From the NCBI GenBank assembly GCA_934101685.1, contig CAKORZ010000002.1, positions 1 through 48,361 on the forward strand: DNA of 48,361 nucleotides, written 5' to 3'. A program made the translations under genes and the position numbers. Position 1 is the first letter of the stretch, and the number at the start of each line of letters is the position of its first letter. Shown here piece after piece: positions 637-26,216 of the stretch. The notes beneath the pieces were generated by a model that saw nothing but the letters and a program-made list of their open reading frames with translations, had not been told where the DNA came from and ran no database searches. Source of the DNA: an uncultured Bacilli bacterium. GTDB taxonomy: Bacteria > Bacillota_I > Bacilli_A > RFN20 > DUOF01.

Positions 637-3600
637 TTAAATTTTAGTTAATATTTCATTTATATAATATATCCATTCATTATTAACCTTTTTAATTCTA
701 ATTCTAATATTATCCTTTTTGAAACTTAAAAGGATATTTTTATAATCTAAAGTATTAACTAATTCAAATAATTTTATACCTATTCCATCTTTATTAGATA
801 TTTCTTTAGACAAGTATACATCTATGAACTCTACATCATCTTTTATTCTTTCTACTTTAGAATGTGATGATAAAACATCCATTCTTTTCTTTTCTATTAA
901 TAAAGTAACATTTTCTGGCATTTTACCATGTATATCTTTAATTTGTTTTTCTAATTCTTCTAGATCACTTAAAGTTTTTACTGCATCTAATTTTTTATAC
1001 ATTTCTATCTTATTACCATCTACTCCAGCATATGAAGAAGGAATATATCCATTTATTTGAATATTGTTAGAAATACTATCATTTTCTTTAACAATTCCTT
1101 TTTCTTCTTCAATAGCATCTTTTAACAAGTCAAGATACAAATCTATACCTATATTTTCTATAAATCCAGATTGATTAGCACCAAGCAAGTCTCCTGCTCC
1201 TCTAATAGATAAATCCCTTAAAGCTATTTTGTATCCGCTTCCAAGTTCAGTAAATTCTTTTATAGCTCTTAATCTATTTGTTGCTACTTCACTAACTTGT
1301 TTATTAGGTTTGAACAATAAGTAGGCATACGCTAATTTATCACTTCTTCCTACTCTTCCTTTTATTTGATAAAGTTGAGATAATCCAAAATGATCAGCAT
1401 CTTCAATAATAATAGTATTAGCATTTGGTATATCAATACCAGTTTCAATAATTGTCGTACACACTAGCACATTTAATTTATTATTATAAAAATCATATGT
1501 AACTTCTTCAATTGCTTCTTTATCCATTTTCCCATGTATAATTCCTACACGTGCTCCTTTAATCTTACTTTCTATGTCATAAGCGACACTAGCAATATTA
1601 CTAGTCTTATTATATAAATAAAAGACTTGTCCATTTCTTCCTAATTCTCTTTCAATTATTTCTTTTATAATTTTAGGATTTTTTTCCATAACATAAGTTT
1701 GAATTGGCATTCTTTTTTCTGGTGGAGTTTGTATTTGGCATAAACTTCTTATTCCTATTAATGACATTTGCATAGTTCTAGGAATAGGAGTAGCACTTAA
1801 TGTTAAAACATCAATAGAGTTTTTAAACTCTTTGATTTTTTCTTTATGTTCTACACCAAATCTTTGCTCTTCATCTACAATTAATAAGCCTAAATCATGA
1901 AACTTTATATCATTAGATAAGATTCTATGTGTTCCTATAAGCATATCTATTTTCCCATCTTTTAAATCTTTAATAATTTTTTGCTGTTCTTTTTCTGTTT
2001 TAAATCTATTTAAAAGTTCTACTCTTACATTAAAGTTTTTAAATCTATCAATAGCGCTTGCATAGTGTTGGCTTGATAATAAGGTGGTTGGACAAAGAAG
2101 AGCTACTTGTTTAGCATCTTTTATCGCTTTAAAGGCTGCGACAAAAGCAACTTCTGTTTTACCAAAGCCTACATCACCACATAAAAGCATATCCATTGGT
2201 ACACTTTTTTCCATTTCTTTTTTTACTTTTTTTATAGCCTCTAATTGATCTTTAGTGTAAACATAAGGGAAATCATTTTCAAACATCATTTGTAAATCAT
2301 CGTCACTAGAAAAAGCATACCCTATTTTTTTAGTTCTTTCTTCATATAGTTTTATTAGATCTACCGCAATATCTTTTACTTTATTTTTAATTCTTTCTTT
2401 AGTCTTTTCCCAATCATTACTCCCTAGTTTATTTAAAGTTGGAGCTTTTCCCTCTCTTGCTGCATATTTTCTTACTAAAGAGAATTGTTCTAAAGGCACA
2501 TATAAAACTTCATTATTTTTATATTCTATATGCATATAATCCTTAGTAACTTTACCTGCTTTTATTGTTTCTAATCCTTTATATCTACCTATACCATAAT
2601 TCTCATGAACTAGATAATCACCTATTTGTAAATCTTCATACCCGCTTATAGCTTGCGAGCTTTTAAATTTAGTAAAATATCTACCTGTAGTTATCTTTTG
2701 TAAAAATAATTCTCTAGCAGTTAAAACTACAATTTTTTCTTCATCTAATACAAACCCCTCAATTAAATCTTCATTTATTATTTGAACTAGATTTTTATCT
2801 ATCTCATATTCATCAAACCATAAATTAAGATTAGTAATTTGATGTTCATTTGTTAAATAAATATATATTTTGTATTTTAAATCCAAATAATTTTTTATTA
2901 ATTTAGTAGCCATTTTAGAACTACCATTACAATTAGTAAGAGGATTCAAATAAAAGTATTCATCACTATCTTTTGTTTGAAAATCATTCAATTGTATTAT
3001 TTTTTTACAATCCACTAATACATTATTTAAGTCATAATATAAAGATATATTACTTAATACCTTTTTATCTTCATATAATTCGCATTTATAATCATATGTT
3101 TCTTTTACTAATAAATCATAATTATTATAAATTGATGGTTTATCCATTAGCAAACATACATCAGCATTAAAATAATCATTTAAATTATTACAATCATTTA
3201 TTAATGAATAGTATTTATATAAAGAAGTAGTGTATGTTTCTGTTTCTATTCTTTCGATATCTTCATTTACATTTTCTTTTAATAACTCTGCTTCATCTTC
3301 ACTTAATAATTTACTTTCTTTTTCTAGTTCATTTTTTAATATTTCAATAGCTTTTTCTTTGTCTTTTATTATTAGTTCACTCGCAGGCAATATCAAAACA
3401 TGATCATCTTGTTTTATTGTAGTTTGTTTTTCTAAATCAAAATATCTTATGCTTTCAATTTCGTCATCAAAGAATTCTATTCTTACAGGATTATCATAAT
3501 TAATACTAAAGAAATCTAAGACCTCTCCTCTTGAAGAATATTCTAAAGTATTACAAACTTTATTAACTCTTTTATAACCATTTTTTTGTAAAAAGTTTTC

Positions 3601-4610: not shown

Positions 4611-4640
4611 CAAACAAGCAAAAGGCACTAATAAGTGCCT
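4611..4640 (-). terminator. Putative intrinsic terminator or attenuator downstream of the giant ORF
   Basis: 7-bp stem aggcact (4623-4629) / agtgcct (4634-4640) with loop aata. On the minus strand it is followed by TTTGCTTGTTTG, a weak U-tract. Confidence 0.4.
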
Positions 4641-4649: not shown

Positions 4650-7600
4650 TTACTTTAATACTTTTACTTTCTTTCTAAAGATTACTACTTTTCCAAATCC
4701 ATATATAATAGCTGCTCCTGCTATAAATATCAATGACCATCCAAGTGGATCTTTGTTAAAGAAATTCTCTCCAATATTCATTCCAAGTTCTTTTTTAGCA
4801 ACTTTTTTGTCTACTACAAATACATATACAAATCCGCCTAAATTAGAAATTATGTTTTGATATTTACTTTCAACGGTTATTACACTTTCAGAATGTTCAT
4901 TTAAGTAATTAGAATCATTAGTATTTAAAACCATATAAGCCCCTTCATCTAATGATCTATATCCAAGAACACCATTTCCACAACTAGAAGTTCCTTTATA
5001 TTGGCTAGTAGGTGTAGCAAATACTAAAGTATCGTTTGCTGAGAATTTATAATCTTTATCAGACTTAATTATCAAAGATTTACCATCTTGTAATTCTAAT
5101 AAATATTGTTTCTTTGGTTTTAACAATACGTTATTTAAACATATGTTATCACTATTATTTATAGATATTTTATATGTCGTTGTATTGCCTGCTAAATCAG
5201 TTAATACAAACATATATTCTCCAGATTCTTGTACTTTTTGCTTCTTAGAATATGCTTCACCATTTAATGTAACTTTTACTATTGGTGCTTCTGCTTTACT
5301 TGTTGGTTCTTTCCAAGTTATATATGCATATCCCTTTATAAAATCACCTGCACTAGCACTAGCATCATTATCATTAATAAATAATTGATATTTAGGAGCT
5401 TGTCTATAGATAACAAAATGTCTTTCTATACTTTCATTGCCAACTGTATCAAAGGCTTTTATTTCATATACTCCTTCTTCTGTAAATTGCATTGATGTAG
5501 ATTCAATAGTTATCCATTCACCATCATTAATACGATATTTCAAATAACTACCTAAATTGTTATCTACAGATGTAACGCTAACCATCTTTGCATTTGTATA
5601 ACTATTTTCTGATAGTTCATAAGTTACATATGATGTATCTGCAGTAACACTTATATCTGGTGAATCGTTGTCAATTGTAATGTATTGAATGTCTCTTCCA
5701 ACTGTAATATTTCCTATTTCATCTCTTGCTATAATTTTATATGTGCCTGTTTTTAGTAAAACATAACCTGATGCTGAGAAAGTTGCAATAGGTTCATCGT
5801 TACATGTATATTCATCATTTTCTAGAACACATCCGCCATATATTATTCCTTCACCATTAACTGTATCATCTATAGAAACACCAACTTCTCCTTTATAATA
5901 TTCAAAGACACCTACTTTATTTCCACTTATAGTAATCTTAGGTGGTTGTTTATCTATAATGAATTCTATTTCAGAATATAGAGATGGGTAATAATTACCA
6001 TTAGTATCTTTTTTAACATATGCAACATATTTATACTTAGAAGTTCTTCCATATACTTCTTTTACCATGATATTTGTATCTCTTCTTGTATAGCCGCTAG
6101 CAGTTTCTAAGTATAATTCTATGCTATATATATCTGTACAATCACTAACAACACTATCTTCATAACAGAATAGTTTTACATTATTTTTTACCTTTTCGCC
6201 ATTCATTATTATTAGTTCATTTCCATCAGTACCAATAAGTTTATTTCCATTTTCATCTACTTCATATATCTCTATTTCTGGAAGTTTTATATTAATACTA
6301 AATGTGAATTCACTACTTTCTGTTATATTACCTGCAAAATCTTCAAACAAGAATGTGTATATTACATCATTTTTACTATTTATAGTAAAGGTCTTTATTC
6401 CTGCTTCATTAAAGGCTGTTTGATCACCTTTACAAGGATTTAATAATTTAAATGTTTTATTTCCTTCATCATTTATAGTTATAGGAGCAAATTTTGTAAC
6501 ACCATCTTTATTCCAACTAATTACATCTTGGTTTGATTGGTTTTTAGTAATTGTGTAATAAGTTTGTCCTATAGTGAATGAATTAGATTCAATTAACACA
6601 GATGATGTGCTTCCATTATCTACCCAAACAACAGATAATCTACCATTTATTTCTTTTATAACATATGTTAAGTTGTAGTTACATGACCATTTTAATGATA
6701 CAAGTTTTTCTTGCCATTCTATAGTTACCTCTGAATTTATATAATTTCTAAAATCATTTATAAACTCTTGTATTGTGTTAAATGTAAGTTTACCACTTGG
6801 CTTGTTAACTGTAATTGTAACGCCTGAAGTATCTGGGTTTGTTTTATCTATTTCAAACAATGAATATCTACGTCCTGTATTAGAATTCTCCATTTCCTTT
6901 TTCTTAATTTGTAATGCTTCCAAACAATTAAGTTCATTAACTTCCCAAGAAGAAATAATACTTACATCAGTATATATATCTTTACAATTTATAGTTCCAT
7001 CGTTTCCAATACATCTCTTTTGTATTAAGATAGATTCTCTATTTACTAATTCTACTTTGTAAATTCCCTCATCTTTATATGTTAAAGTTGATTGTGAGTA
7101 ATTACCAGAAATGAATTCAGCTTCTATTTTATTTTCTTGATTACCTGTAGTACTACATTTACCAGAATGTGTTGTACCCATTAATTGTGACGTACATACT
7201 AATTGCCATGAATTATTATTTAATTTATATAAATTTATGTAATTAGTTATATCATCCCATTTAAGTATTAGATCACCTTTAGTTATCATTCTTTGTTCTT
7301 CTTCTATAAATGTATTATTATCAATATATTTTATAGTATTAGAACTATCAGTAGAATAACTTAAAGTGAAATCAATTGGGTTATATATAAATTTAACTTG
7401 ATTTGTGTTGCCATGATCATCTTGCAAGCTAATTTCAAAGAATCCATAAATATGATTAATATTTGAAATTTTAACTTTGTAAATATTTTTACCATTAGCA
7501 GAACCATCTGTATTTTCACAACCATATAATAATCCAGTTGTTCCATTTAAACACTTTAAAGATTTTAATATATCTTCACTAGTTTCATAAACTTCTCCAT

Positions 7601-10600
7601 CACTTGACCATTTAGCATCTAAATTGTTAGTTAATGTTCTTGTATTCCATGTATCTACTATTGTAACCAAGGCATATTGATTACTTCCTTCACCAACATA
7701 TGATAATTGAATATTAGGTGATATTTGACTCTTTGAAACAATAACTTTTGTAACGTTACCAGCTCTGTCAATAAATTCTAATGTCGTTATCATGTTATCA
7801 TCGTCAGCTATTCCTACTGGTATTTCAAAATAGTATTCTCCATTATTTCCTATTTTCAAATAATCATTTATGTTTTCATATGTTACGATATTTGAATCAA
7901 ATTCTCTTTGAATAGTTCTAATTAATCTCAAATATGAGTATACTTCATCTTCATTTTTATATATCTCGTATTTTTGTTCAAATCTGCTTATATCACTACT
8001 TTTCTTTAAAATTAAGTAGAATTTAGTAGTATTTGTTTTAATTGTATTACTAATACCTGAACTATTTATATAAATTTCTTCATTGTTATCTACAGTTTCT
8101 CCATTCTTCTCCGATCTATATTTAATATTCAAGAATGAATTATCATCTACAAATACTGCATAATATGATTTATTACTATGATTTACTATTTTATTATTAC
8201 TTGAGTTAGTATATGAGATTGCTCTATCTACTTCCTCAAAAATATAGTATGTATTTCCATTCAATTGTAAGTTAAATGTTGCTGTTTGTGGAGTAGAAAA
8301 ATTAGTAGTACCATTTTCAGTCATTGTTTTGTAATAGTATCTAATTGATTCTGTATCCCTTGTATTATCTTCATTAACTTCTAAATCAATATTTAAATTA
8401 ACGATATAATTCAAAATTTTAACATAAACTTTTATACAATTTTCTGTGCTATCACATGTTTCTTCAATAGATACTGAATTATCTACATCATTTTTCTTTA
8501 AATATACATATTTGTACATATTTGTTTCTTTGCAATTTTCATTATTTTCCGGATCACATATACCTTGATAAATAGAACTATCTCCAAATAGTTTATCACC
8601 ACCATATGTTGGGAAAATTAACTTAGACAAATAACTAGCAACATCTTGTAATATAGCTTCCTTAGTGTCAAATCTTCCTTCAATAAATGTTCTAGAACTC
8701 AAATCATAGTAAGAATAGCAATATTTATTAGTGTTACAATATCTTGCATTTTCATCAATATGTTTAGAGTATACATTATACAAATATACAATCGCTTCAG
8801 TCTTTGTTGCAAAAGCATAGAATAAATTAGAGTTTAATATTGAAAGATCATTTATATTGACTGCGTTATTTGAATTTGAAACAGAAGATAAAATAGTGCT
8901 TATTACATTAACATTACTATTGCTTATTACATCTACTGGTACACTGAACCAATAGCTTGAACCTGTTGGTGTATTTTGAGATTTATTGTAATCAGGAGCT
9001 GTATTATCAACATCTATTCTTGACACATCTTCATGATCATTATTATTTTTTGATCTACCTGCTGAATTCATCGCTTTATCTACAGCTTTTATTAGATATC
9101 CACCATCTTCTCTAATATAAGCAACAATTGATGAAATCTTGTAAACGTTACTAGCATCTTCTGTGGTAAAATTATGTCCCATTTCATACTCACTAAATCC
9201 ACCTGAACTATTTTCAAAGTAATAAGTTACATAGAAATACTTATCTTCATTCGGCAATACTTTAGTATACACTATTTTATATACAACTTCGCCATTACTA
9301 TTAGTTTTAATGTAGTTATATCCACCAGAATATGATTCTTTTCTAAATGTTCCATTTAGCATTTCCTCACATTCATAATATCCATCATCAGATGTAGAGA
9401 TTTCTCCTCTAAGTTCACCTTTCTTACAGTATAATTTAGCATCTTCTTTTAAACTAACCGCATAGTAAAGTTTGTTTGTTTTTTCATCAATTTCTGCATC
9501 AATTTTCATATCAGGTATTGTGGTATCAATGATAAATTGATGTGATGTGTAATTGTATTTTAAATACATTACATTCAATGAATTGTTATCACAGTCACTT
9601 CCATTTGTGCAGATTTTATTTTCTTTATAACTACCTTTATCATAAACATAGAATTTGTATATTCCTTGAGCTTGATTTGAATAATTATATTCTCCTCCAC
9701 TTTCACTAATCTTCTTTACGCTTTTTTGAATATTGCTTCCTCTTGGATTTTCAAAGATATTAGTTGGCAATACACATAAATCAGGTGTACCAGTACATGA
9801 GTATACTTCAAAGATACCCTCGTCCTCATTTTCAAACAAAATATTAACTTCATTATAGTATCCTGATAGGCTATTAATTCTAGTTCCATTAATTTTAAAT
9901 TCAGGAATTGTTGTATCTTCTATGTAAACAGTTCTTATAAGAGTTTTGCTAACGTTACCAGCTAAATCAGTAACTATATATTCTATCTTATAAACATCCA
10001 CTAAATTTTCTTTAATAATCCTATTTCCATAACTATCCTCTGCTACCTCTACCCAATAATTAGAATCTGTTAATAAACTAGGATAATAGTTGTAGTAATC
10101 TTCAACATAGCAATAGTCACTATTACTATCACACGAATAATCTCCTCTAAAGATATAACCACTTACCTTTTTCATTAGTGTGTAATAAGTAGTATTTTCA
10201 TCTTTAGTTGTTCCGTTTGGAACTGCAACAAATGTATTATTTTCTTTAATATAATTATTAAATGTAATATTAAAATTATACTTATAATAAATAATTTGAT
10301 ATGTAAGACTATTTTTAATATATATGTCTGCACCTTGAGAATTAATTCTGTTTGTAATGTCATCATTAGATTTAATATCATTAGTGTAATTACTATTTAT
10401 ATACTCACTATCATATGTAACATTAGTGTTTTCCTTATCTACGTAGTCTACGCTAATATTGTGTACATCTTTTTTACCATTATCACGGAAGTCAATAGTT
10501 GGTTTTTGTCTATCTATAAACAAATAATTTATAGTAGTTTGATTATCACAGAAATCATATATTGTTAATGTGTAATTAATATAAGTATCTTCTGTTTCAT

Positions 10601-13600
10601 CACTTATTAATTCAAAATATGTTTTATTTTCTCTATAATCATACTCTGTTTCATTAATTGAACATTTTTCTTCTTGATCTGTTATAGAAGAATAATATTT
10701 ACATTCAATCTTGTAGATAGGCTCACTAAATTCAACAACTAAATTTTTATCTGTTAATTTGTATTTGTTATCTTCTGTTTTTAAAGAATAAGCATATCTA
10801 ACAAAATATTGAACACCAGTTTGTTTTGTTAAACCATCGGCAACCTTTTCATACACTGAATCTTTAACATAATATTGTGTGTAATCATTTATTTCATCAC
10901 AAGCAACAAGTACATAACTATTTTCTGAAACCTGTTTATAATATGTATTTTCAGAACATTTATTATTTCTTAATTCATTGCTAACTTTATAATAAGCATT
11001 TGTTTTGATGTAGTTATTTTCTGTTTCTGTTAATCCTCTATTGTCTTCAACATACTCAAGTGAAGATATATTTACAACAGATGGTGCTATTTTATCTTCT
11101 ATTATAATAACAGTTTCTAGATAGTTGACAGAATAGTTACCAGCTCCATCAATAGCTCTAAATATAATAGGTCTTCCTAGTGTAGAAACTAATCCAAATC
11201 CAAACTTTACCTCTTGTTCATTACTTTTAGCAATTTGCCATTTTCTATCATCAAGAATTCCGCATCTTCCATTAACTCTTACCATTCCATCAATTGGGCA
11301 ATTATTATTAGCATCTTTATAATCATTTGATACTAAATTGTAATATTTTATATTTTCGCTAATTAGTTTAATTTTTCCTATATCATTTTCAGTAACTTCT
11401 TCACATGTTCCACCATTTACTTGAACACATGTTTGTGGCAATATTGTGGAAGGAAGATATTTTCCATTATCTTCTACATATTTAGGATCATCATAATAAT
11501 AATTTAAGTAATTGCTTGTAGAAATATTTGCTGTATCTTCAACTAAAGTAAATCCTTCATTATCCTTTGTATAATAATTAGTATCTGAGAATTTTCCAGT
11601 ATTTTTATACATTGTATATAATTTACACTCTGTATCCTCTGCAGTGCACACTTCATCATATGTTTTTGTATACATTTCTTTAATATTAACTGGTTCTTTA
11701 TTATCGCCATAATAATATTGTGTATTAGGATCAATTTGTTCATCAATAGAAACCTTTATATAAGCTCCTTTTTGATAGATCTTGGCATTATTTGAAATAT
11801 CTTCTATTAATTTATCCTCGCTTCTATATATTGGATACATTTTTTTGAATAAAGTTACATTTGCATCTGCATATATATTATTTTCTCTTAGTGAATAATT
11901 TCCACTAGTGTCTCTAACATAATTGTTATATGTTACTCTATTCGCTTCATATGCTACAATAGAAACATTGTTCTTAATATTTTCTTGGCTAGGCAAATCT
12001 GAGCATAATATTTTTCCTGAATCAGCAATAGTTGTTTCATTTTCACATTTAAACGATTCTAATGATGCATCTGCAGCCATTGATAACATATATTGTTTAT
12101 TGTTATCAAAGTCATATTTTCCAAACTCAGTAGTTGGTGTATAGCTACTATCATAATAGATATATGGCATTTCATTATCAAATATAAATCCTTGTCTTTT
12201 TGTAAATGTGTTATTAAAGTAATCTGTTACAGTAATATTTAATGTATTAGTTCCAGATTTTCTTGATTCGTTTATAGGAATAACAAATTTAAATAAAATT
12301 GATTTAGTAGTTGTTCCATCAACTCTACATTCATAATCATCCACTAAACCTGTACCTAAAGAAAGTTTACAATTTCCATTTTCATTTATAACAGTCAATG
12401 TCATAACAGTTTCTGGTTCTGATGAATCACTACTTGTTATACCATATTTAACAGTCATTATTGTTTCGCCATTCTTATTTTCTAAGAAACTATTTTCGCT
12501 AACAGTAATCCTAACATCGGCAAATTGTTGATATTCACTTAAATTTTTATTGTTAACATCTACAATTTCATCAATACTAGGAGCCTCTTTATCTATAGTA
12601 AATGCATACGAAGTTCTGTTTCCTCCAGCATCAACAAAAGTAATAATGTATGTTCCACTCTTAGTAAACTTTAGCCATCTACCATCTTGAGTGAAGATAG
12701 CATTTGTACCATTTATTGACTCGTCACATTTACCTAATGCACAAGTATAAGGATTATAATAAGTCTCATTATCGAATGTCATAACAAGTAATCTATTTAT
12801 TACATTTTCCATTATCATTTCTGATTCTAGATCGAACGCAATTCCCCAGCTACCTATATTAATTATTTTATATGATTGGTTAGTTGAATCATAGATAAAG
12901 TCAGCTGTAGAAAAATTATTATTTTCTCCTTTACAATTTTCAGATGCTCCACATTCAACTTGAGCAATTATGTTTGGCTTTTTAGTATCAATAACAAATG
13001 TATATTCAACTGGTAAAGTAATTAAATTTCCTTCTTCTCCTTCAACTCCAGTTACATCTGTATATAATTCACTTGAAACATAGTAAGTTCCATCACCTGT
13101 AAACGCTAAATAATAATCTCCATTCATCTCAGTAATGAAATAAATTCCTTTTTCTTGAAGTTTGTTAATAATATCGCTTTCTGCATTTTTTATATCGCTA
13201 AACTTGTATTGATTAATGCCTTCAGTGTCTCCACATTGTGGTGCTCTAACTTGATCACCATATAGCACAAATAAGCATTCCATATCATCAGCATTAGAAC
13301 TATCAAAATTATTCATTATGTTTAAGTTCTTAGCCATATTAATTCTTAATATTCCTAAATTGTTTATTTTAAATTTCAAGTACACAAATTTATTTGTAAA
13401 CATCATTGTTTTATTAAAATCATTATATAAAGTTGTAGGAATTAAATCTTGATACTTATATGTTTCTGGTGATTTTGCTTGGAAGAAAATGCTAGTTTGT
13501 TCTAGTTCATCTGCATCAGAAGTTGGTAATCTTTTGTCACAATTTTCTTCGCCATTAGTACATGTAAAGTTAGATTTTTTCTCATCATAACTTTCGTCAT

Positions 13601-16600
13601 CTTCAACATAAATATCTAATTTCGCCTTTACTATACCAATACCACCAATAGCTCTAGATTCATTATAGAAACTATCAACTAATGTGAAATTGTACAAGCC
13701 CTTTGAAATTTTAAATACATCTTTATCATCAAGTATATTACATTCTTCATTATCGCATTGAACCTTAGGGATACTAATTCCTCCAGTAGTTTTATCTTCT
13801 AAAGTAGTAGATGCTGATATTAAGAATGATATGCTTTTTATTATTGCACTTTCATTTATAACATATTCTGGATCTTCTCTTGCTTTATCTAGTTCTTTTT
13901 TATTTAAAAGCATAATAGCTCTAATATATTGAGAAAGTCTTTCGCCAAATGAAGCCATATTTGTAGTTTCATCAATTTCCGTACAATCTGTTGTACAAAT
14001 TTCACTCTGCGTATATCTAACGGCTAATGAATCAAAATCATTTCTTTCATATAAATCTATTATTAAGTTAAAGGCATCTTCTCTTTTATCATCAGTTTCT
14101 TCAACTCTTAATTCTAATTTTTGAGTTCCAATTTTAAAATAGTAAGTCATTTCATTTCCTGCTCTATCACTTGCTGTAATAGAATATATTTTGTCAGGTT
14201 CGTTCTTATCATATCCATAAGCAATTTTTACGTATTCCGCTAAATTATTAATACATTTTCTATCGTTAACTGTGGCATTACATTTTAAATAATATTTTTG
14301 CTTATTAACTATTGTATAAGCATATGGATCTATATCAAAGATATTTGAGATTGTGATATCTCTAGTAAGCAAGTCTGGATCACTTTCACTTTTTCCTCTA
14401 TATAATTCTTCATAAAAAATTTGCTTTGTTGTCGCGCTTCCTGCTGCTTTGTAACTAATAGTTGGAACTGTTGAATCTAAAATAAATGTTGCTGATTCTC
14501 CACACACTTCATTTATTTCTCCATAGTTATAGCAATACTTTACAACGTATTTCCCATCTTTAGAATAATCTGCTGATGAGGACTTTTTAAATTGCACATT
14601 GTTTTTTCCAGATACGCTTGTTAATACAGGTATATTAGATATATAATAGCCATCATCAGAATTCAAAGTTTCATAAAATTCCACAACTAAATATACATTT
14701 GTTTTTAAATTTAAATTTAATTCTTTAGTATATAGTTCTGTTGTAGTTTCATCATTATATATATCTAGAACTGGTTTATTCGCTAACTTTTCAGTGTATC
14801 TTGTATTTTGCTCACTAACAAAATAATTATTATCTTCTATTATTTGATTTAGAATTCTTTGAAGAGATTTTAAATTTGCAAAAGCATATCCTTTTTGATT
14901 ATTACATATTCCTTTTAATCTTCTATTTGCATCTAACTTACATGAACTATCATTTTCATAGTTTAGTTCTAAATCTATATAATATACAAAATAAAAATTT
15001 TGGTTTGTCAATAAAGCGGTATCATCAAAAGCATTTACTCCTTCATTGCGGTTATATTTTTTGTTAACCAAAGCAATTCTAGTATATTCTTGTAATACAG
15101 CATATTCTTTTGCTTTTTCCTCTCCTTGGAAAGCTACTTTATTGTTATGAGGCTCCGCTTCATATTTTAAGAAATTAGAACGAGTATATACCAAACTTCT
15201 TGTATCTAGTACAAATTCTCCTTTTCCAGTAGATGTATTATATATAAATCTGTAGTAAGAAGTTCCTTCTGCTTTCTCTAGGTTATCTTCTATTGGATAG
15301 TAGTACTCACTCCAAGTGCCATCTCTTAAAGCTGTTGTTTCTGTTCTATTATATAAATACCATTTATCAATTCCTAAACCACCAATTTCAATGTTGTCAG
15401 GTAAATTATTTTCAATAACAACGATAGTTCTACCAATTATAAAATTAATATCATTAAAAGATATAAATCTATGGTATGTAGATATATCCGTTACATTTTC
15501 AGAAGTTATTGTTGTACTATCTGGATAGGCAATGCTTTTATTTCCATATTTCATTTTATATTTATCCATTACCATGTTTCCAGGACAACTAGTAGCATTA
15601 TCACCATCACACACTTTTTGATTTTGAAGTAAAGAAATATTATCATAGTTTGCAAATACAGTTTTATCAACAATTGCTATAAATGAATCCTCATTTCCTT
15701 TATTAGAAACTAGTACATCATTTATTTTAGTAGTTTTTGTTGATCCAGCAAACACATAGTTTATTTCTCCATCATTGCTTTCTCTAATATATATATCGTT
15801 AATAGTAGATGTTCCAGTTAAAAATCTTTCTGTTATATTAAGAGCTCCATCATCATCGAATCCTACTTCAGAATAATATCCTGTAGCGCCCTTCTGTCCT
15901 ACAGCAATATACAGATCATCATTTATTTTCTTAACAGAGTTTAATGTGTCACTTGAATTATTATTTTTTATTAAAGCATCAAAGATTCCTAAATTATTAT
16001 TTAGTAATACATATAGAACATTTTCAGTTCCTGAAGAATTTTCACTATTTGAAAATTGTGTTTTAATTCTATCTCTTCTTGTCTTTCCAACAATCAAATA
16101 ACCATTTTCACGTGAAACTATATCATTGAAGTATGTTGTTGTTGTACTTGCTTCATTATATGTTAAATAGTAATATGGTTTTTCAGATACGCATCCGTTT
16201 TCATCAGTAAAATTATCTACTTCGCAACTTGTCACATATCCACCTACTGCACCATTATAGCCTTCAACTTCACTACTTCCAACTGCGATTATTTTAGCTC
16301 TACTATCATCATTAACAACAATTAGTGAGTTATATCTTGATTCCAAACTATTAGCATAATAACTAATATTTACAAGTTCAGTATTATTTCCAATATTTAT
16401 TGTAGATCTCATAATCTTACCAATTGTCTTGTTATATGTATCTGTATAATATCCTACTGCCACTAAATAGTTGCCTGTCAATTCAATCTTATTAATTCTA
16501 GTCATTTCAACTGGTATGATTTTTCCATATTCTACAAGTCCACCATTTCCACCAGAGCTTAACTGTATTCTGCGCACAAAGCTTTTAGTTGAACCATCTT

Positions 16601-17297
16601 TTGTATATGTTCCACTTATATAAAAATCTGTTTTAGATGTTGAACCCACAGTCTTTATAATATCATATAAACTAACATCGCTTATTTCTGAAGTTGATGA
16701 TATTCCTAGTCCTTCAAAAAACCATAGTGTATTTAGACAATCAAATTTTTCATTCCATATTTGTCTTCCTATTAAATCATATTTTATTATATATGCATTG
16801 TTTCCAAAATTTCCAATTGCTAAATATCCATCATCTACTCCAATAATTTTTGTAAATGCGTCGTTTTCAGTAGTATTTACAGTTTCTGTATTCGCAACCC
16901 ATGTGCTTAAAGATTTGTTTAAGTCATTAGGTAGAACTCTAACTTGTCGTGTAATTGAAATTGAATCGTTTTCTGTTAAGAAATATTTAATCTTATAAAA
17001 TCCAGCGTTTTTAACATAATTATTTGATGATATAGCGCCAGATGCAGATGATGATTCTATAATCACTCCATTTATTTCAACAGTCACTTGATTTTTCACT
17101 GTTCCATCGCAAATTATTTCTACTCCACTATCGCTCCAACCAGCCTTAGTGTTTAAAACAAGATACTCGTCTCCATCTCTTAGGTTTATTTGACACTCTT
17201 CAGCTGACACTTTTTCAGCACCTAAAAAAGTGAAAAATGAAAACACTAAAATTAAAGCAAAAGTTCCCTTCTTTATTAATTTATTAATAAAATGCAT
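4650..17297 (-). CDS. Giant (4215 aa) secreted, C-terminally membrane-anchored surface protein with propeller-like and Ig-like modules; putative adhesin, family not assigned
   Basis: Uninterrupted 12,648-nt ORF in AT-rich DNA. Signal peptide MHFINKLIKKGTFALILVFSFFTFLGAEKVSA/EE (nt 17202-17297). C-terminal TM helix WSLIFIAGAAIIYGFGKVVIF (nt 4677-4739) followed by the basic tail RKKVKVLK. The ...DxxGN...DxxxP module-end signature recurs about 14-15 times. RBS-like AAAGGCGTGG lies upstream of the ATG. Confidence 0.9.
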   Translation of the reverse strand: MHFINKLIKKGTFALILVFSFFTFLGAEKVSAEECQINLRDGDEYLVLNTKAGWSDSGVEIICDGTVKNQVTVEINGVIIESSSASGAISSNNYVKNAGFYKIKYFLTENDSISITRQVRVLPNDLNKSLSTWVANTETVNTTENDAFTKIIGVDDGYLAIGNFGNNAYIIKYDLIGRQIWNEKFDCLNTLWFFEGLGISSTSEISDVSLYDIIKTVGSTSKTDFYISGTYTKDGSTKSFVRRIQLSSGGNGGLVEYGKIIPVEMTRINKIELTGNYLVAVGYYTDTYNKTIGKIMRSTINIGNNTELVNISYYANSLESRYNSLIVVNDDSRAKIIAVGSSEVEGYNGAVGGYVTSCEVDNFTDENGCVSEKPYYYLTYNEASTTTTYFNDIVSRENGYLIVGKTRRDRIKTQFSNSENSSGTENVLYVLLNNNLGIFDALIKNNNSSDTLNSVKKINDDLYIAVGQKGATGYYSEVGFDDDGALNITERFLTGTSTINDIYIRESNDGEINYVFAGSTKTTKINDVLVSNKGNEDSFIAIVDKTVFANYDNISLLQNQKVCDGDNATSCPGNMVMDKYKMKYGNKSIAYPDSTTITSENVTDISTYHRFISFNDINFIIGRTIVVIENNLPDNIEIGGLGIDKWYLYNRTETTALRDGTWSEYYYPIEDNLEKAEGTSYYRFIYNTSTGKGEFVLDTRSLVYTRSNFLKYEAEPHNNKVAFQGEEKAKEYAVLQEYTRIALVNKKYNRNEGVNAFDDTALLTNQNFYFVYYIDLELNYENDSSCKLDANRRLKGICNNQKGYAFANLKSLQRILNQIIEDNNYFVSEQNTRYTEKLANKPVLDIYNDETTTELYTKELNLNLKTNVYLVVEFYETLNSDDGYYISNIPVLTSVSGKNNVQFKKSSSADYSKDGKYVVKYCYNYGEINEVCGESATFILDSTVPTISYKAAGSATTKQIFYEELYRGKSESDPDLLTRDITISNIFDIDPYAYTIVNKQKYYLKCNATVNDRKCINNLAEYVKIAYGYDKNEPDKIYSITASDRAGNEMTYYFKIGTQKLELRVEETDDKREDAFNLIIDLYERNDFDSLAVRYTQSEICTTDCTEIDETTNMASFGERLSQYIRAIMLLNKKELDKAREDPEYVINESAIIKSISFLISASTTLEDKTTGGISIPKVQCDNEECNILDDKDVFKISKGLYNFTLVDSFYNESRAIGGIGIVKAKLDIYVEDDESYDEKKSNFTCTNGEENCDKRLPTSDADELEQTSIFFQAKSPETYKYQDLIPTTLYNDFNKTMMFTNKFVYLKFKINNLGILRINMAKNLNIMNNFDSSNADDMECLFVLYGDQVRAPQCGDTEGINQYKFSDIKNAESDIINKLQEKGIYFITEMNGDYYLAFTGDGTYYVSSELYTDVTGVEGEEGNLITLPVEYTFVIDTKKPNIIAQVECGASENCKGENNNFSTADFIYDSTNQSYKIINIGSWGIAFDLESEMIMENVINRLLVMTFDNETYYNPYTCALGKCDESINGTNAIFTQDGRWLKFTKSGTYIITFVDAGGNRTSYAFTIDKEAPSIDEIVDVNNKNLSEYQQFADVRITVSENSFLENKNGETIMTVKYGITSSDSSEPETVMTLTVINENGNCKLSLGTGLVDDYECRVDGTTTKSILFKFVIPINESRKSGTNTLNITVTDYFNNTFTKRQGFIFDNEMPYIYYDSSYTPTTEFGKYDFDNNKQYMLSMAADASLESFKCENETTIADSGKILCSDLPSQENIKNNVSIVAYEANRVTYNNYVRDTSGNYSLRENNIYADANVTLFKKMYPIYRSEDKLIEDISNNAKIYQKGAYIKVSIDEQIDPNTQYYYGDNKEPVNIKEMYTKTYDEVCTAEDTECKLYTMYKNTGKFSDTNYYTKDNEGFTLVEDTANISTSNYLNYYYDDPKYVEDNGKYLPSTILPQTCVQVNGGTCEEVTENDIGKIKLISENIKYYNLVSNDYKDANNNCPIDGMVRVNGRCGILDDRKWQIAKSNEQEVKFGFGLVSTLGRPIIFRAIDGAGNYSVNYLETVIIIEDKIAPSVVNISSLEYVEDNRGLTETENNYIKTNAYYKVSNELRNNKCSENTYYKQVSENSYVLVACDEINDYTQYYVKDSVYEKVADGLTKQTGVQYFVRYAYSLKTEDNKYKLTDKNLVVEFSEPIYKIECKYYSSITDQEEKCSINETEYDYRENKTYFELISDETEDTYINYTLTIYDFCDNQTTINYLFIDRQKPTIDFRDNGKKDVHNISVDYVDKENTNVTYDSEYINSNYTNDIKSNDDITNRINSQGADIYIKNSLTYQIIYYKYNFNITFNNYIKENNTFVAVPNGTTKDENTTYYTLMKKVSGYIFRGDYSCDSNSDYCYVEDYYNYYPSLLTDSNYWVEVAEDSYGNRIIKENLVDVYKIEYIVTDLAGNVSKTLIRTVYIEDTTIPEFKINGTRINSLSGYYNEVNILFENEDEGIFEVYSCTGTPDLCVLPTNIFENPRGSNIQKSVKKISESGGEYNYSNQAQGIYKFYVYDKGSYKENKICTNGSDCDNNSLNVMYLKYNYTSHQFIIDTTIPDMKIDAEIDEKTNKLYYAVSLKEDAKLYCKKGELRGEISTSDDGYYECEEMLNGTFRKESYSGGYNYIKTNSNGEVVYKIVYTKVLPNEDKYFYVTYYFENSSGGFSEYEMGHNFTTEDASNVYKISSIVAYIREDGGYLIKAVDKAMNSAGRSKNNNDHEDVSRIDVDNTAPDYNKSQNTPTGSSYWFSVPVDVISNSNVNVISTILSSVSNSNNAVNINDLSILNSNLFYAFATKTEAIVYLYNVYSKHIDENARYCNTNKYCYSYYDLSSRTFIEGRFDTKEAILQDVASYLSKLIFPTYGGDKLFGDSSIYQGICDPENNENCKETNMYKYVYLKKNDVDNSVSIEETCDSTENCIKVYVKILNYIVNLNIDLEVNEDNTRDTESIRYYYKTMTENGTTNFSTPQTATFNLQLNGNTYYIFEEVDRAISYTNSSNNKIVNHSNKSYYAVFVDDNSFLNIKYRSEKNGETVDNNEEIYINSSGISNTIKTNTTKFYLILKKSSDISRFEQKYEIYKNEDEVYSYLRLIRTIQREFDSNIVTYENINDYLKIGNNGEYYFEIPVGIADDDNMITTLEFIDRAGNVTKVIVSKSQISPNIQLSYVGEGSNQYALVTIVDTWNTRTLTNNLDAKWSSDGEVYETSEDILKSLKCLNGTTGLLYGCENTDGSANGKNIYKVKISNINHIYGFFEISLQDDHGNTNQVKFIYNPIDFTLSYSTDSSNTIKYIDNNTFIEEEQRMITKGDLILKWDDITNYINLYKLNNNSWQLVCTSQLMGTTHSGKCSTTGNQENKIEAEFISGNYSQSTLTYKDEGIYKVELVNRESILIQKRCIGNDGTINCKDIYTDVSIISSWEVNELNCLEALQIKKKEMENSNTGRRYSLFEIDKTNPDTSGVTITVNKPSGKLTFNTIQEFINDFRNYINSEVTIEWQEKLVSLKWSCNYNLTYVIKEINGRLSVVWVDNGSTSSVLIESNSFTIGQTYYTITKNQSNQDVISWNKDGVTKFAPITINDEGNKTFKLLNPCKGDQTAFNEAGIKTFTINSKNDVIYTFLFEDFAGNITESSEFTFSINIKLPEIEIYEVDENGNKLIGTDGNELIIMNGEKVKNNVKLFCYEDSVVSDCTDIYSIELYLETASGYTRRDTNIMVKEVYGRTSKYKYVAYVKKDTNGNYYPSLYSEIEFIIDKQPPKITISGNKVGVFEYYKGEVGVSIDDTVNGEGIIYGGCVLENDEYTCNDEPIATFSASGYVLLKTGTYKIIARDEIGNITVGRDIQYITIDNDSPDISVTADTSYVTYELSENSYTNAKMVSVTSVDNNLGSYLKYRINDGEWITIESTSMQFTEEGVYEIKAFDTVGNESIERHFVIYRQAPKYQLFINDNDASASAGDFIKGYAYITWKEPTSKAEAPIVKVTLNGEAYSKKQKVQESGEYMFVLTDLAGNTTTYKISINNSDNICLNNVLLKPKKQYLLELQDGKSLIIKSDKDYKFSANDTLVFATPTSQYKGTSSCGNGVLGYRSLDEGAYMVLNTNDSNYLNEHSESVITVESKYQNIISNLGGFVYVFVVDKKVAKKELGMNIGENFFNKDPLGWSLIFIAGAAIIYGFGKVVIFRKKVKVLK

Positions 17298-17325
17298 AAT
17301 ACCACGCCTTTCAATACACGATTTA

Positions 17326-17354
17326 ATTGTAAATTAATTAACCTTTTTATTCAA
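17326..17354 (-). promoter_or_regulatory. Candidate sigma-A-type promoter for the giant ORF
   Basis: On the minus strand: TTGAAT (17349-17354), 17-nt spacer, TACAAT (17326-17331), about 30 nt upstream of the ATG. Confidence 0.35.
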
Positions 17355-17389
17355 TAATTCGACACATATATTGTTCATAATTTTTAAGA

Positions 17390-17419
17390 TTGACAATATT
17401 TGTAATTATATTTTATAAT
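17390..17419 (+). promoter_or_regulatory. Candidate sigma-A-type promoter for the ParB-like ORF
   Basis: TTGACA (17390-17395), 18-nt spacer, TATAAT (17414-17419). An AGGTG RBS lies about 8 nt before the ATG at 17457. Confidence 0.45.
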
Positions 17420-17456
17420 TAGAGTATGATTTTTAATAAAAGTAGGTGTTTAAACT

Positions 17457-18629
17457 ATGGATTACACATTAAGTCAAAAAAGAGCCATTATCAGGGATGT
17501 TTTAGCTGAAGATGGTTTAACTTTAAATGATATGTCTAGATTTTTTTCTAGGACAATGACTTCAACTTCAGAAATTGAGCATCGTACTACCCCAAGTGGC
17601 ATTTCTTATGGAAAAGTTTCATCTTTTTTTACTCCTTCTATGGAAGAAATCTATATAGAAGATATTGTTGGATTAGAGTTTGCCACAAATAGTTTTTATG
17701 ATTGCTTGCTTAATATTTATAGGCCTGAATCACTCTTTGAAAATTTAGGAAAATTTGATAGAGAAAAATTTCAAAGAACATTAAGTAGTTCTAATTTTGA
17801 ACTTATTGAAAAAGATGGTAAATACTATGTTCATGGGGATGGCAATCACAGAGTTTTATTAATGCTTTTCCAATATTACAAAGGGTTAGCAAGACTAGAA
17901 AAGCTAAATGCGCCTGCTTGGATGTTTCATAAATATATTGGTGAATCAAAAATAACTGTTCCTGTTATCCATTTAGATCATAAAGAGAGCCTATTGAATT
18001 TTTTAGATAAATATAGTTTTGAAGTTTTTGAGCCTTTAGAACAAGATTTTATAAATAGTTTTACAGGCAAAAATAGTTATCGCACTATTGTTTATAATCA
18101 AGAAAACAATACATATTCCTTTTATTACAAAGGGTTTGAAAAGCATGAACTTACACCTAACGAAACATTAAGAGCTTTATCAAACATTGAAAACATAAGC
18201 TGTGAAAACAAAGTTCTTTTTAACGATGATCTATTTATTTTATTTAATGAACATTTTGGCCTTATGGACATTCCTTCAGACCATGTTATGCGTTGTGATG
18301 AGATTATTTCAAATTTAAGATTACCTGATACTAAATTTCCATATTTTATAGATGGATCATATGATTGCGAATGTTTCGATTTGCATATTGCTAATTCCTC
18401 ATATACTGATAAGATAGCTAATGTTATAGAAATAAATCGTTTTATTGAAGACCACCTTGATATTTTGAAAGCAGATAGGGTGGAAGATGTATATGAACCC
18501 GCTACTTGTTTGTATGAGAGAAAATACACAAACATTCCTTTAGAAAAAGCTATAGAAATCGTTAATGTTTTTAAAAAATTAGAAGATTTAATACTTATAA
18601 ATGAGCCGAAAAGAAAGACAAAAAAATAG
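17457..18629 (+). CDS. Hypothetical protein with an N-terminal ParB/sulfiredoxin-like domain (DGNHR motif) and a C-terminal region of about 250 aa of unknown function
   Basis: 390 aa. ELIEKDGKYYVHGDGNHRVLLM (DGNHR at nt 17838-17852) fits the hydrophobic-strand plus DGxHR core of ParB/Srx-fold domains. It has its own promoter and RBS. It is the only plus-strand gene in the left arm apart from rsmI. Confidence 0.8.
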   Translation: MDYTLSQKRAIIRDVLAEDGLTLNDMSRFFSRTMTSTSEIEHRTTPSGISYGKVSSFFTPSMEEIYIEDIVGLEFATNSFYDCLLNIYRPESLFENLGKFDREKFQRTLSSSNFELIEKDGKYYVHGDGNHRVLLMLFQYYKGLARLEKLNAPAWMFHKYIGESKITVPVIHLDHKESLLNFLDKYSFEVFEPLEQDFINSFTGKNSYRTIVYNQENNTYSFYYKGFEKHELTPNETLRALSNIENISCENKVLFNDDLFILFNEHFGLMDIPSDHVMRCDEIISNLRLPDTKFPYFIDGSYDCECFDLHIANSSYTDKIANVIEINRFIEDHLDILKADRVEDVYEPATCLYERKYTNIPLEKAIEIVNVFKKLEDLILINEPKRKTKK

Positions 18630-18650
18630 CAAATTAATTGCTATTTTTTA
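18620..18650. terminator. Putative bidirectional terminator shared by the convergent ParB-like gene and folD
   Basis: Imperfect palindrome tagcaaattaattgcta (18627-18643) has an A-run on one side and a T-run on the other. It overlaps both stop codons. Confidence 0.4.
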
Positions 18651-19489
18651 TTTATTCTTTTTTCAAATGAAGTTACCGTTTGACTCATTAAAGAAACTAT
18701 TGTCATAGGCCCCACTCCACCAGGAACTGGTGTGTAAGCACTTGCAATATTTTCAATTCCGTCTTGATCTACATCACCTATATTTCCTAGGTTATATCCA
18801 GCATCTATTACAACACATCCTGGTTTTAACCATTCTTTTTTTACAAATTTTGGTTTGCCAACACACGCTACAACTATATCCGATTTTTTTACTAATTCTT
18901 CTAAGTTTTTAGTCCTACTGTGAGCTATTGTAACTGTTGCATTTTTATTTAAAAGCATCATTGCCATAGGTTTACCAAGTATAGCACTTCTTCCTATAAC
19001 AATTGCCTCTTTTCCTTCTATTTCTATATTATAATTTTCAAGTATTTTCATGATTCCATAAGGAGTAGCACTTACATAAGCTTCTTCTCCCATAGACATT
19101 GCTCCAAAGCCTGCACTAGTAACTCCATCTACATCTTTACAAGGTAAAATTGAATTGAAACATTTTCTTTCATCAATATGTCTTGGTACTGGATGTTGAA
19201 GCAATATTCCATCTATATTTTCATTATTATTTAAATCTTGAATAATTCTAAGTAGTTCATCTGTAGTAGTATTGTAATCTAACTCTATTTTTAGAGATTC
19301 AATGCCTATTCTTGCACATGCATTCCCTTTCATTCTTACATATGTTTGACTTGCAGGATCTTCACCTACAATTATAGTTGCTAAAGTAGCAGTTTTTCCT
19401 GATATTTCCTTTAGTTTTGCAACTTTTTCTTTTAGTTCTTCTTCTAATCTTTTTGATAATTCTTTACCATTTAAAACAACAGCACTCAC
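18641..19489 (-). CDS. folD: Bifunctional methylenetetrahydrofolate dehydrogenase/cyclohydrolase FolD
   Basis: 282 aa. YVRMKGNACARIGI, LLQHPVP, GRSAILGKPMA and PVPGGVGPMT motifs. GTG start overlaps the dusB TGA (GTGA). GGGGG RBS. Confidence 0.95.
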   Translation of the reverse strand: MSAVVLNGKELSKRLEEELKEKVAKLKEISGKTATLATIIVGEDPASQTYVRMKGNACARIGIESLKIELDYNTTTDELLRIIQDLNNNENIDGILLQHPVPRHIDERKCFNSILPCKDVDGVTSAGFGAMSMGEEAYVSATPYGIMKILENYNIEIEGKEAIVIGRSAILGKPMAMMLLNKNATVTIAHSRTKNLEELVKKSDIVVACVGKPKFVKKEWLKPGCVVIDAGYNLGNIGDVDQDGIENIASAYTPVPGGVGPMTIVSLMSQTVTSFEKRINKK

Positions 19490-20472: not shown

Positions 20473-20490
20473 AGTTATTTTATCATTTAT

Positions 20491-22557: not shown

Positions 22558-22632
22558 ACAATTCCTCCTATATAAAATTTATGATTAATACACATTTAAT
22601 TATGAACCAACTTTTAGCATTTAAACATTTTA

Positions 22633-23367: not shown

Positions 23368-23418
23368 AACTTCACCTCATATTAATGTATGTTGTTATTT
23401 AAAAATAGGTACTATGTT

Positions 23419-24093: not shown

Positions 24094-24094
24094 A

Positions 24095-24922: not shown

Positions 24923-25446
24923 TCTATCACTTCCTTTATTTCTTTTATAGTAAGTCCAAACATATTTACTCTTTTTAAAAATGTTTTAGCGTTACACCAT
25001 CCTAAATGATAGTAATTACATACTTTTTCTCTTTTACTTTTTGAATCATTTTTTCCAAGTAATCCTAACTCATATAAATCACTTTCACTAACTAATTTTT
25101 GATTATTTTTCTTATAAGTAACTACATTTTTTAAAGCTTCTAGAATATCTTCTTTTTTGGTTTCTGCTATTCCTACTTTTTTACCTTTTATAGCCTTACT
25201 TTTTTCTACATAAGCATGTTTACAATCGCCTATGTAGTTAGTTATTATATTTCTAATTCTAAGACCTGGATAATCTGGATCTGTTAAAATAATAACACCT
25301 TGTTTTTCATTTGCTTCTTTTATAAAATCTAGTGTATTTTTTGATATTTCACTACCATTAGTTATTACTATATCAGCATCTAAAAAACTTTTTAAAAAGA
25401 TTAAATCAGTTTTCCCCTCTACTACTATTAACTCTTTTACTTTCAT
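24919..25446 (-). CDS. rnmV: Ribonuclease M5 (Toprim domain)
   Basis: 175 aa. LIVVEGKTD and ILTDPDYPG Toprim motifs. GAGGT RBS. Confidence 0.92.
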   Translation of the reverse strand: MKVKELIVVEGKTDLIFLKSFLDADIVITNGSEISKNTLDFIKEANEKQGVIILTDPDYPGLRIRNIITNYIGDCKHAYVEKSKAIKGKKVGIAETKKEDILEALKNVVTYKKNNQKLVSESDLYELGLLGKNDSKSKREKVCNYYHLGWCNAKTFLKRVNMFGLTIKEIKEVIE

Positions 25447-25448
25447 TT

Positions 25449-26210: not shown

Positions 26211-26216
26211 AATATC

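Follow-up and report, generated by a model that had tools for sequence, protein, structure and literature searches.

The stretch of DNA analyzed here (the window; 48,361 nucleotides (nt), contig CAKORZ010000002.1 of assembly GCA_934101685.1) comes from an uncultured Bacilli bacterium. Its positions 4650-18629 probably form a two-gene, lineage-restricted and strain-variable cassette of a low-GC, small-genome gut bacterium of this class that encodes an adhesin-like surface fibre. One gene specifies a giant protein of 4215 amino acids (aa), for which the best reading is a new lineage-restricted family working like a fibrillar adhesin; the other, divergently transcribed, specifies a partner protein of 390 aa. 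The most unusual property of the locus is its extreme strain-level divergence combined with discordance between gene tree and genome tree, and what sets this giant fibre apart is the cassette behaviour together with a co-diverging cytoplasmic partner.

In the mechanism that we propose, the giant would be exported by the Sec pathway as a fibrillar surface protein of ~476 kDa, and a single C-terminal transmembrane (TM) helix followed by a short basic cytoplasmic tail would hold it in the cytoplasmic membrane. A stalk of ~30 or more immunoglobulin (Ig)-like modules, many of them braced by cysteine pairs, would reach ~100 nm and project an N-terminal Ig-like domain and a propeller head away from the cell. 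Because the projected head is the likely ligand-binding part, with host mucus or epithelium, particles or other microbes as candidate ligands, the giant would work like a fibrillar adhesin. The cassette would evolve and be exchanged as one unit, with alleles far older, or far more diverged, than the surrounding genome, as would be expected of an exposed structure on which phages, the immune system of the host or a change of ligands exert selection. The ORF, its topology signals, the predicted folds, the distribution of the family and the divergence and discordance are results shown here; that the protein is exposed and adhesive, what agent selects it and whether the partner protein has a role are parts of this scheme that we infer. 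The features of the cassette, by window position, are these:

4623..4640, minus strand: terminator-like GC-rich hairpin and T-run, directly 3' of the giant stop codon
4650..17297, minus strand: giant open reading frame (ORF), 4215 aa; mature protein ~476 kDa, pI 4.65 (ORF call, intact in independent assemblies)
4653..4676, minus strand: short basic tail RKKVKVLK, predicted cytoplasmic, nearly invariant
4677..4739, minus strand: single C-terminal TM helix, aa 4187-4207 (Kyte-Doolittle maximum 2.22; helix in the model; kept in all orthologs)
4749..5147, minus strand: membrane-proximal domain, aa 4051-4183, beta then alpha/beta, with the invariant terminal motif IGENFF.KDP.GW (ortholog alignment, model)
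5148..14717, minus strand: stalk of divergent Ig-like beta-sandwich modules, aa 861-4050 (motif counts, iterative profile, fold matches, models)
14718..15404, minus strand: conserved region, aa 632-860, with three predicted helices and a predicted local distance difference test score (pLDDT) <50 (alignment, model)
15405..15662, minus strand: confident beta-rich subdomain after the propeller, aa 546-631 (model)
15663..16907, minus strand: predicted seven-bladed beta-propeller head, aa ~131-545 (model pLDDT 80-94; Foldseek)
16923..17201, minus strand: N-terminal Ig-like beta-sandwich, aa 33-125, with invariant Cys35/Cys63 (model with seven or eight strands, pLDDT ~80-87)
17202..17297, minus strand: Sec-type signal peptide, aa 1-32, MHFINKLIKKG...FLGAEKVSA/EE (sequence prediction; highly conserved in all orthologs)
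17298..17456, no strand assigned: divergent intergenic control region (promoter elements, ribosome-binding site)
17457..18629, plus strand: partner gene, 390 aa, 45.8 kDa, pI 5.1, divergently transcribed from the giant gene

The giant gene is a single intact ORF of 12.6 kb that runs from an ATG through 4215 codons, exactly at the coordinates given in a preliminary description of this DNA. With the base composition of its coding strand (A 0.41, T 0.31), the probability of a stop is 0.096 per codon, or ~1 stop expected in ~10 codons, so that the log10 probability of zero stops across 4215 codons is -185; 371 and 748 stops occur in the other two frames of this strand. Thus, the ORF is not due to chance. 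Four human-gut metagenome assemblies, independent of one another and including one Hadza sample, contain the gene at ≥99.95% identity without a single gap opening, and full-length orthologs span 4019-4294 aa. Together these exclude a frameshift or assembly artefact, an objection that the preliminary description had itself raised. Relative to orthologous alleles, the ratio (omega) of nonsynonymous (dN) to synonymous (dS) divergence is 0.23, which argues that the protein is under purifying selection and hence functional. Exact-sequence look-up of the giant protein returned no match, the recorded copies differing by a few residues; the same look-up for pth also returned none, gene callers having picked another start. 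An AAAGG ribosome-binding site lies 5' of the ATG at 17297. The distance between the starts of the ORF and of dnaA (30512) is 13.2 kb and the sign of the GC skew switches at ~30 kb, in agreement with the ~13 kb from oriC estimated earlier. By this skew the minus strand is the leading strand on this arm, and the giant gene is therefore co-oriented with replication.

These data bear directly on whether the locus is DNA in decay or without a function, a chimera made in assembly, or an element of mobile or phage origin, for instance a gene for a tail fibre. This explanation is essentially excluded. It could draw on the orphan character of the sequence, which has no Pfam matches, and on contigs of several assemblies that break inside the gene, but a reading frame with a chance probability of 1e-185 stays intact in at least 10 diverged lineages at an omega of 0.23, and the assembly is identical in four samples. 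The chromosomal position is fixed, no integrase, repeats or tRNA lie near the cassette, and the GC content of the giant gene is the same as that of its flanks. A viral fold library does return many phage tail and fibre proteins for the predicted C-terminal structure described below, but these matches are generic arrays of Ig or FN3 domains. The contigs in question end at window positions 9785 (L005 and L008), 11960 (L007) and 17012 (L004), 9785 being the break point in two different samples; co-existing divergent alleles that fragment the assembly at this locus may be the cause.

A Kyte-Doolittle hydrophobicity scan of the whole giant protein resolved the signal peptide (aa 7-32) and the C-terminal helix (aa 4187-4207) as its only two hydrophobic segments. 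The preliminary description had placed a signal peptide ending in VSA/EE and a C-terminal helix at nt 4677-4739 followed by RKKVKVLK, and both were recovered in those places. No lipobox was seen in the signal peptide, and no LPXTG-like motif ([LIVS]P.[TASG]G) occurs anywhere in the giant protein; a C-terminal hydrophobic stretch and basic tail exist, but they are preceded by IGENFFNKDPLGW, not by LPXTG. Common to all six full-length members of the family (the giant and five orthologs) are the signal peptide, many invariant cysteine pairs, and the order IGENFF.KDP.GW, TM helix, KKV.VLK. The giant has 69 cysteines, mostly in close pairs (for example 35/63, 358/369, 563/571, 786/798, 922/932, 1006/1015, 3249/3260, 3823/3832 and 4053/4106), and many are invariant among orthologs at 36-63% identity. 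The close invariant pairs suggest disulfide bracing of extracellular modules, in an anaerobic gut habitat.

The N-terminal part was modelled with AlphaFold2 (aa 33-1070, 11-sequence ortholog alignment, mean pLDDT 70.9). After the Ig-like domain, the model is confidently all-beta to aa ~630 (pLDDT 80-94) and is built of repeated four-strand blades with the motif F.KI..v.DGYLAIG...iiKYD..G..iW. When the model was compared with the Protein Data Bank (PDB) by Foldseek, the seven-bladed propeller enzyme CylK ranked first (E 2.9e-12, 13% identity), and propellers were matched at a probability of 1.00; the following ranks were mostly generic propellers, including EED, semaphorins, heads of the henipavirus attachment glycoprotein (G) and the NanA sialidase. 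The predicted head is a seven-bladed beta-propeller by this measure, with seven four-stranded blades round an axis. A CylK-like enzymatic head was considered and set aside, because at 13% identity and with mostly generic propellers ranked next the likeness is at the level of the fold only. Beyond the head, the region at aa 632-860 carries the conserved motifs GIDKWYLY, AFQ..EKAKE.A.LQE, YYFVYYIDL and NYFVSE, and further beta modules follow downstream of aa 860.

The C-terminal part (aa 3480-4215) was folded as one concatenated chain with the 390-aa partner, with pLDDT mostly 75-90. The model contains six or seven consecutive beta-sandwiches, then the small alpha/beta membrane-proximal domain, then the TM helix. 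Its Foldseek matches in the PDB are arrays of Ig domains: GhpA of Aureispira, S-layer proteins including HPI, cadherin and SiiE. Many stalk modules end in G.Y.I...D.AGN...(F/I).ID...P, and conserved, closely spaced cysteine pairs are found along the whole stalk; aa ~2764-3200 depart from the canonical pattern. D-x-x-G-N occurs 14 times in the giant against 1.8 expected, D-x-A-G-N six times against 0.05, and D-x-x-x-P 16 times against 5.1. The preliminary description had counted a two-part signature, D-x-x-G-N followed by D-x-x-x-P, 14-15 times; the count holds for the first half, but the strict combination within 25 aa occurs only five times. Self-BLAST of the giant found no internal repeats, and so detection of modules needed profile hidden Markov models (HMMs); there are no tandem repeats at the DNA level in the stalk. 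An iterated profile whose seed was a single module (aa 3883-3972, taken across the orthologs) recruited nine modules between aa 863 and 4050, which are mutually homologous by this measure. We estimate that the stalk consists of ~30 or more divergent beta-sandwich modules, which from typical Ig-domain dimensions would give a length on the order of 100 nm. These results agree with the earlier proposal of a membrane-anchored giant surface fibre with an Ig-like domain of ~90 aa, about seven propeller-like blades and a long region of divergent modules, for which structure prediction and Foldseek had been suggested as the check; the term adhesin still follows from the architecture.

We further compared the giant with known families. 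A Pfam scan gave nothing above noise, with no SLH, LysM, choline-binding, FIVAR, GA or DUF1542 match, and no Pfam family reached E≤0.01 and no NCBIfam model passed in any of the six full-length members. The best NCBIfam match, to the OmpL47-type Ig-like barrel NF047446 over aa 3900-3960, scored 20.4 bits, far under the cut-off of 40. A PDB sequence search with the giant found nothing, a search with the central aa 2591-3366 gave no match, and a scan of JGI metagenomes with the family alignment found no relative. Exhaustive HMMER search of 1.84 billion representative proteins with aa 1-1200 returned 24 hits in total, of which five were full-length (4019-4294 aa) and one, P0003, is the protein of the L013 locus. 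By coordinates and identities, the remaining hits look like fragments of giant orthologs, except for the weak hit P0025 (505 aa, from outside the window). In P0025 a type IV pilin-like N-terminus with a methylation motif is fused to several blades of the same type, DGY(I/L)A(V/I)G...KYD..G..IW. This fusion places the blade type in another filament-displayed context, which counts in favour of a fibrillar adhesin and suggests that other surface filaments, too, display propellers of this class. Since membership fails at the sequence level for every named family tested, we file the giant as a new lineage-restricted family, in line with the earlier remark that it had no recognizable LPXTG, SLH, LysM or choline-binding element and could not be placed in a named family.

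At the other end of the protein, a word-based search with the C-terminal 866 aa gave one weak match, to a surface protein of candidate division SR1, a member of the candidate phyla radiation (CPR), and the C-terminal region aligns at 24-25% identity with tandem Ig repeats of the protein P0001, which carries PF17963 and PF16403. The SR1 match, together with GhpA fragments as the top PDB fold matches of the stalk, brings in a reading in which the fibre is a capture device that tethers a metabolically reduced, possibly partner-dependent bacterium to another microbe, as the giant proteins of episymbionts or GhpA do, with allele diversity tracking partner specificity. Strong allele divergence would fit such specificity switching, and minimal metabolism and host-associated lifestyles have been predicted for the related reduced-genome Bacilli orders RF39, RFN20 and ML615J-28 (PMC10868615). 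However, the likeness to GhpA (10-12% identity) and to SR1 (24-25% over the tandem repeats of P0001) is that of generic Ig-like arrays, and an episymbiont lifestyle of this organism is without support. We consider this reading highly improbable, and it would in any case be a sub-case of adhesion, not a separate mechanism.

Among the closest known parallels are the fibrillar-adhesin-like (FA-like) proteins described by Monzon et al. (PMC8286594, PMC9210967), which 'evolve quickly' and are computationally hard to identify (PMC9210967). Like them, the giant is a long single chain that evolves fast, with a beta-sandwich stalk, a distal globular domain and an anchor at the opposite end. It has a predicted export signal (hydrophobic h-region at aa 7-32 and VSA/EE, conserved in all orthologs), a stalk of tandem beta-sandwich domains according to the predicted models, the fold matches and the nine-module profile, and a predicted distal propeller without homology to a known adhesive domain. 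Unlike proteins that fit the operational definition (PMC8286594), it has no detectable Pfam stalk, adhesive or anchor domain; its anchor is a C-terminal TM helix instead of LPXTG, SLH or CHU_C, and its stalk modules are all highly diverged.

A stalk made of a chain of tens of Ig-like domains is shared with SiiE, with the RTX adhesins LapA and MpIBP and with GhpA, and SiiE 2yn5 (TM-score on target 0.42) and fragments of GhpA (E 2e-10) were among the fold matches. Those proteins use a type I or type IX secretion system (T1SS or T9SS), C-terminal secretion signals and Ca2+-binding BIg repeats, whereas the giant carries a Sec signal at its N-terminus, a TM anchor at its C-terminus and only 10-17% identity to them, and the cassette neighbours are pth, mfd, folD and dus, not T1SS genes. 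The strand pair ...G.Y.(I/F).A.D.AGN...(I).ID...P is likewise shared with the D-x-A-G-N Ig domains (OmpL47-type NF047446, Big_9 PF17963 and Bact_surface_Ig-like/DUF5011 PF16403), but NF047446 stays at 20.4 against 40 bits, PF17963 and PF16403 give no match, and the likeness to P0001 is at the level of motif and BLAST only. The giant also lacks the LPXTG motif of sortase-anchored proteins and any Pfam match to the SLH or CWB2 domains of Firmicutes S-layer proteins.

The giant gene lies between pth and folD and, on the sequences compared, is restricted to a narrow clade of uncultured human-gut "Bacilli" metagenome-assembled genomes (MAGs). It was present upstream of pth-mfd where Mfd is 99, 82, 82, 81 and 66% identical to that of the window, and was not found there in fourteen genomes with Mfd 39-48% identical (L014-L027). 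In its position the latter carry ordinary-sized genes of ~890, 525, 700 and 610 aa, so the cassette looks like an insertion specific to one genus-level clade. A synteny comparison of this interval had been suggested in the preliminary description, which regarded the giant as an accessory element of a housekeeping origin region; presence down to 66% Mfd identity and absence at ~40% bear this out.

Within the clade, the giant gene is far more diverged than its surroundings, a property that the preliminary description had not noticed. In the MAG locus L009, Mfd is 99% identical to that of the window and the giant protein only 62%. Window and L009 share 95-97% DNA identity across mfd and pth; precisely at the giant stop codon the identity drops to 61-78%, and it remains at that level. 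For ten flanking genes in this pair, dS is 0.14-0.32 and dN ≤0.029; for the giant gene, dS is ~1.03-1.08 and dN ~0.24-0.26. The other boundary was mapped against the sister lineage L031/L037, where the block of low identity takes in the 390-aa gene and ends at folD. The values relative to L037 were as follows:

Giant gene: aa identity 0.63, dS 1.19, dN 0.278, omega 0.234
390-aa neighbour: aa identity 0.62, dS 1.23, dN 0.281, omega 0.228
Ten flanking genes: aa identity 0.85-0.98, dS 0.39-0.76, dN 0.011-0.073, omega 0.02-0.19

By these statistics, the giant and its neighbour are one fast-diverging cassette. Discordance was assessed with three lineages (window, L009 and L037) and one 8.7-kb flank. 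In the flank, the window groups with L009 (95.9%), with L037 as outgroup to the pair (90.7% and 90.6%); in the giant gene, it is L009 and L037 that group together (83.5%), and the window allele falls outside them (71.2% and 70.2%). This conflict between trees points to allele replacement or ancient polymorphism. Since synonymous divergence is raised too, the alleles are older than the genomic backgrounds that carry them, and faster amino-acid change alone is insufficient to explain the divergence of the cassette. The cause is either replacement of the whole cassette by recombination among related lineages or a long-maintained polymorphism. Mosaic recombination inside the giant gene was rejected, as the divergence of the three alleles is uniform and there are no identical blocks. 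Variable surface-protein cassettes exchanged between strains include the Clostridioides difficile S-layer cassette and streptococcal surface antigens. As in those, one locus here encodes what is probably the dominant exposed protein, with alleles more diverged than the flanks and discordant with them; unlike those, the cassette consists of a single 12.6-kb gene and a cytoplasmic partner, with no S-layer or glycosylation cluster.

Uniform divergence, in which the tip is not specially variable, would also be compatible with a fibre that has no specific ligand: an Ebh-like scaffold or spacer of the envelope whose main task is to keep the envelope intact, to set the size or shape of the cell, or to shield it as a brush layer from complement, IgA or phages. 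We regard this main rival as rather unlikely. The C-terminal TM anchor without LPXTG would be as in Ebh, which reportedly has a C-terminal membrane-spanning anchor, and the gene is single-copy at a fixed ori-proximal locus, co-oriented with replication; S-layer proteins are moreover among the Foldseek matches. Ebh lacks LPXTG and has a role in cell size and envelope assembly, and both Ebh and Embp are, like the giant, very large Gram-positive surface proteins tightly associated with the cell without LPXTG (PMC5031765). However, the Ebh stalk is alpha-helical, built of FIVAR/GA and DUF1542 modules, whereas the giant has an all-beta Ig-like stalk, a propeller head and no sequence similarity to it, with no FIVAR, GA, DUF1542 or other Pfam family detected. 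A distinct globular propeller at the distal end is typical of binding modules, and a core envelope component would be expected neither to be missing from relatives at ~40% Mfd identity nor to be replaceable by ~62%-identical alleles within backgrounds of 96% average nucleotide identity.

In each of the five contexts examined, at identities down to 37%, the partner gene and a giant ortholog are arranged head-to-head, and this pairing, together with the shared divergence statistics, strongly supports the link between the two genes that the preliminary description had drawn. The search space of 5.8 billion clusters held 12 homologs. No signal peptide is visible in the partner sequence. The partner model is a confident alpha/beta fold (pLDDT ~90), with the invariant motif Y.V.GDGNHR where a beta-hairpin passes into a long helix; GDGNHR resembles the DGxHR signature of some ParB/Srx-superfamily proteins. 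No match was found in Pfam (including PF02195), PHROGs, PADLOC or a PDB profile search, the partner family gave only scattered single-member noise against Pfam at E≤10, and tblastn against phage and plasmid sequences found none. The fold search of the chain concatenated with the giant C-terminus was dominated by Ig arrays and is uninformative on the partner. The label 'ParB-like', which goes back to this one motif, is accordingly a lead and not a result. In the intergenic region, a perfect sigma-70-type promoter (TTGACA-18-TATAAT) for the partner lies at 17390-17419 on the plus strand and a weaker candidate for the giant at 17354-17326 on the minus strand. Phase variation was rejected: there are no convincing inverted repeats round the promoter region and no tandem or homopolymeric tracts.

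A more specific version, which we consider distinctly unlikely, is that the fibre and its co-diverging cytoplasmic GDGNHR partner are a hitherto undescribed two-component, swappable 'surface identity' module of reduced-genome gut Bacilli, in which a ParB/Srx-like NTP-binding or nuclease-type partner is functionally matched to its own fibre allele and the allele sets the host or microbe to which the strain attaches. The partner could then be, for example, an allele-specific regulator, a factor for biogenesis or quality control of a 12.6-kb transcript or a 476-kDa product, or a promoter of recombinational cassette replacement.

Several points weigh against a surface adhesin as the function of the cassette. 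The word 'adhesin' comes from predicted architecture, and no known adhesive domain is detectable by sequence in the giant; the best structural match of the predicted propeller is an enzyme, CylK, which leaves room for a catalytic or other role of the head. About 2,400 stalk residues (aa 1071-3479, including the non-canonical aa 2764-3200) lie outside both models, and ~230 residues (aa 632-860) are poorly modelled. The geometry of anchoring in the envelope, with the TM helix in the cytoplasmic membrane, is itself a presumption. Divergence is evenly spread over the protein, the tip showing no hypervariability, and mean omega is well below 1; these values therefore give no direct sign of positive selection at a binding site. 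The rate of divergence is as high in the cytoplasmic neighbour as in the giant, so that immune or phage pressure on an exposed surface would be insufficient by itself.

The cassette lies among Firmicute origin-region housekeeping genes: mfd, pth, folD, dus, a gene for a ClpC-like ATPase, YabG, ksgA, trmE, jag, yidC, rnpA, rpmH, dnaA, dnaN, ssb, dnaB and gyrBA. Among reference genomes the closest is a MAG of Hadza origin that bears the label 'uncultured Bacilli bacterium'; its contig measures 1.03 Mb, and the 23-kb locus taken from it has 26% GC. More distant relatives are labelled 'uncultured Mollicutes'. These labels and the sporulation genes near the locus (YabG, YabP, SpoVT) suggest one of the reduced-genome Bacilli orders of PMC10868615. 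No Rfam or tRNA features were found within the window. The gidA-gidB-noc-soj-spo0J (parAB) block, which is usually ori-proximal elsewhere, is absent between trmE and the cassette (18641-30000), where the order after trmE is tatD, a Toprim/DUF4093 gene, ksgA, a metallo-beta-lactamase (MBL)-fold gene, yabG, clpC, dus and folD; no canonical ParB was seen in the window. Two further plus-strand ORFs close to dnaN-ssb and dnaB-htrA, 33181-33927 (248 aa) and 39757-40755 (332 aa), gave no match in Pfam; both are also called on a public contig, likewise without Pfam matches. The MBL-fold hydrolase genes at 23419-24093 (minus strand) and 39033-39797 (plus strand) have precomputed Pfam matches to Anti-Pycsar_Apyc1 (PF23023) and Lactamase_B; their products are probably MBL enzymes of the usual housekeeping kind.

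Uncultured Bacilli lineages with small genomes occur commonly in the human gut, and all that is known of their biology comes from genomes. The cassette is probably the main point of contact between the organism and its environment, and domain databases do not see it: a family of proteins >4,000 aa long can lack Pfam coverage altogether. Fibre alleles with only ~62% identity can occur in strains that share ~96% identity over the flanking 8.7 kb, which matters for the tracking of strains, for assembly (contigs end inside the gene) and for any interaction with phages or the immune system. The orphan partner, cytoplasmic and tied to the fibre in evolution, offers a testable handle on how giant surface proteins are made or exchanged, and a ligand of the head, if found, would give a first indication of the niche or the partner that this lineage has.

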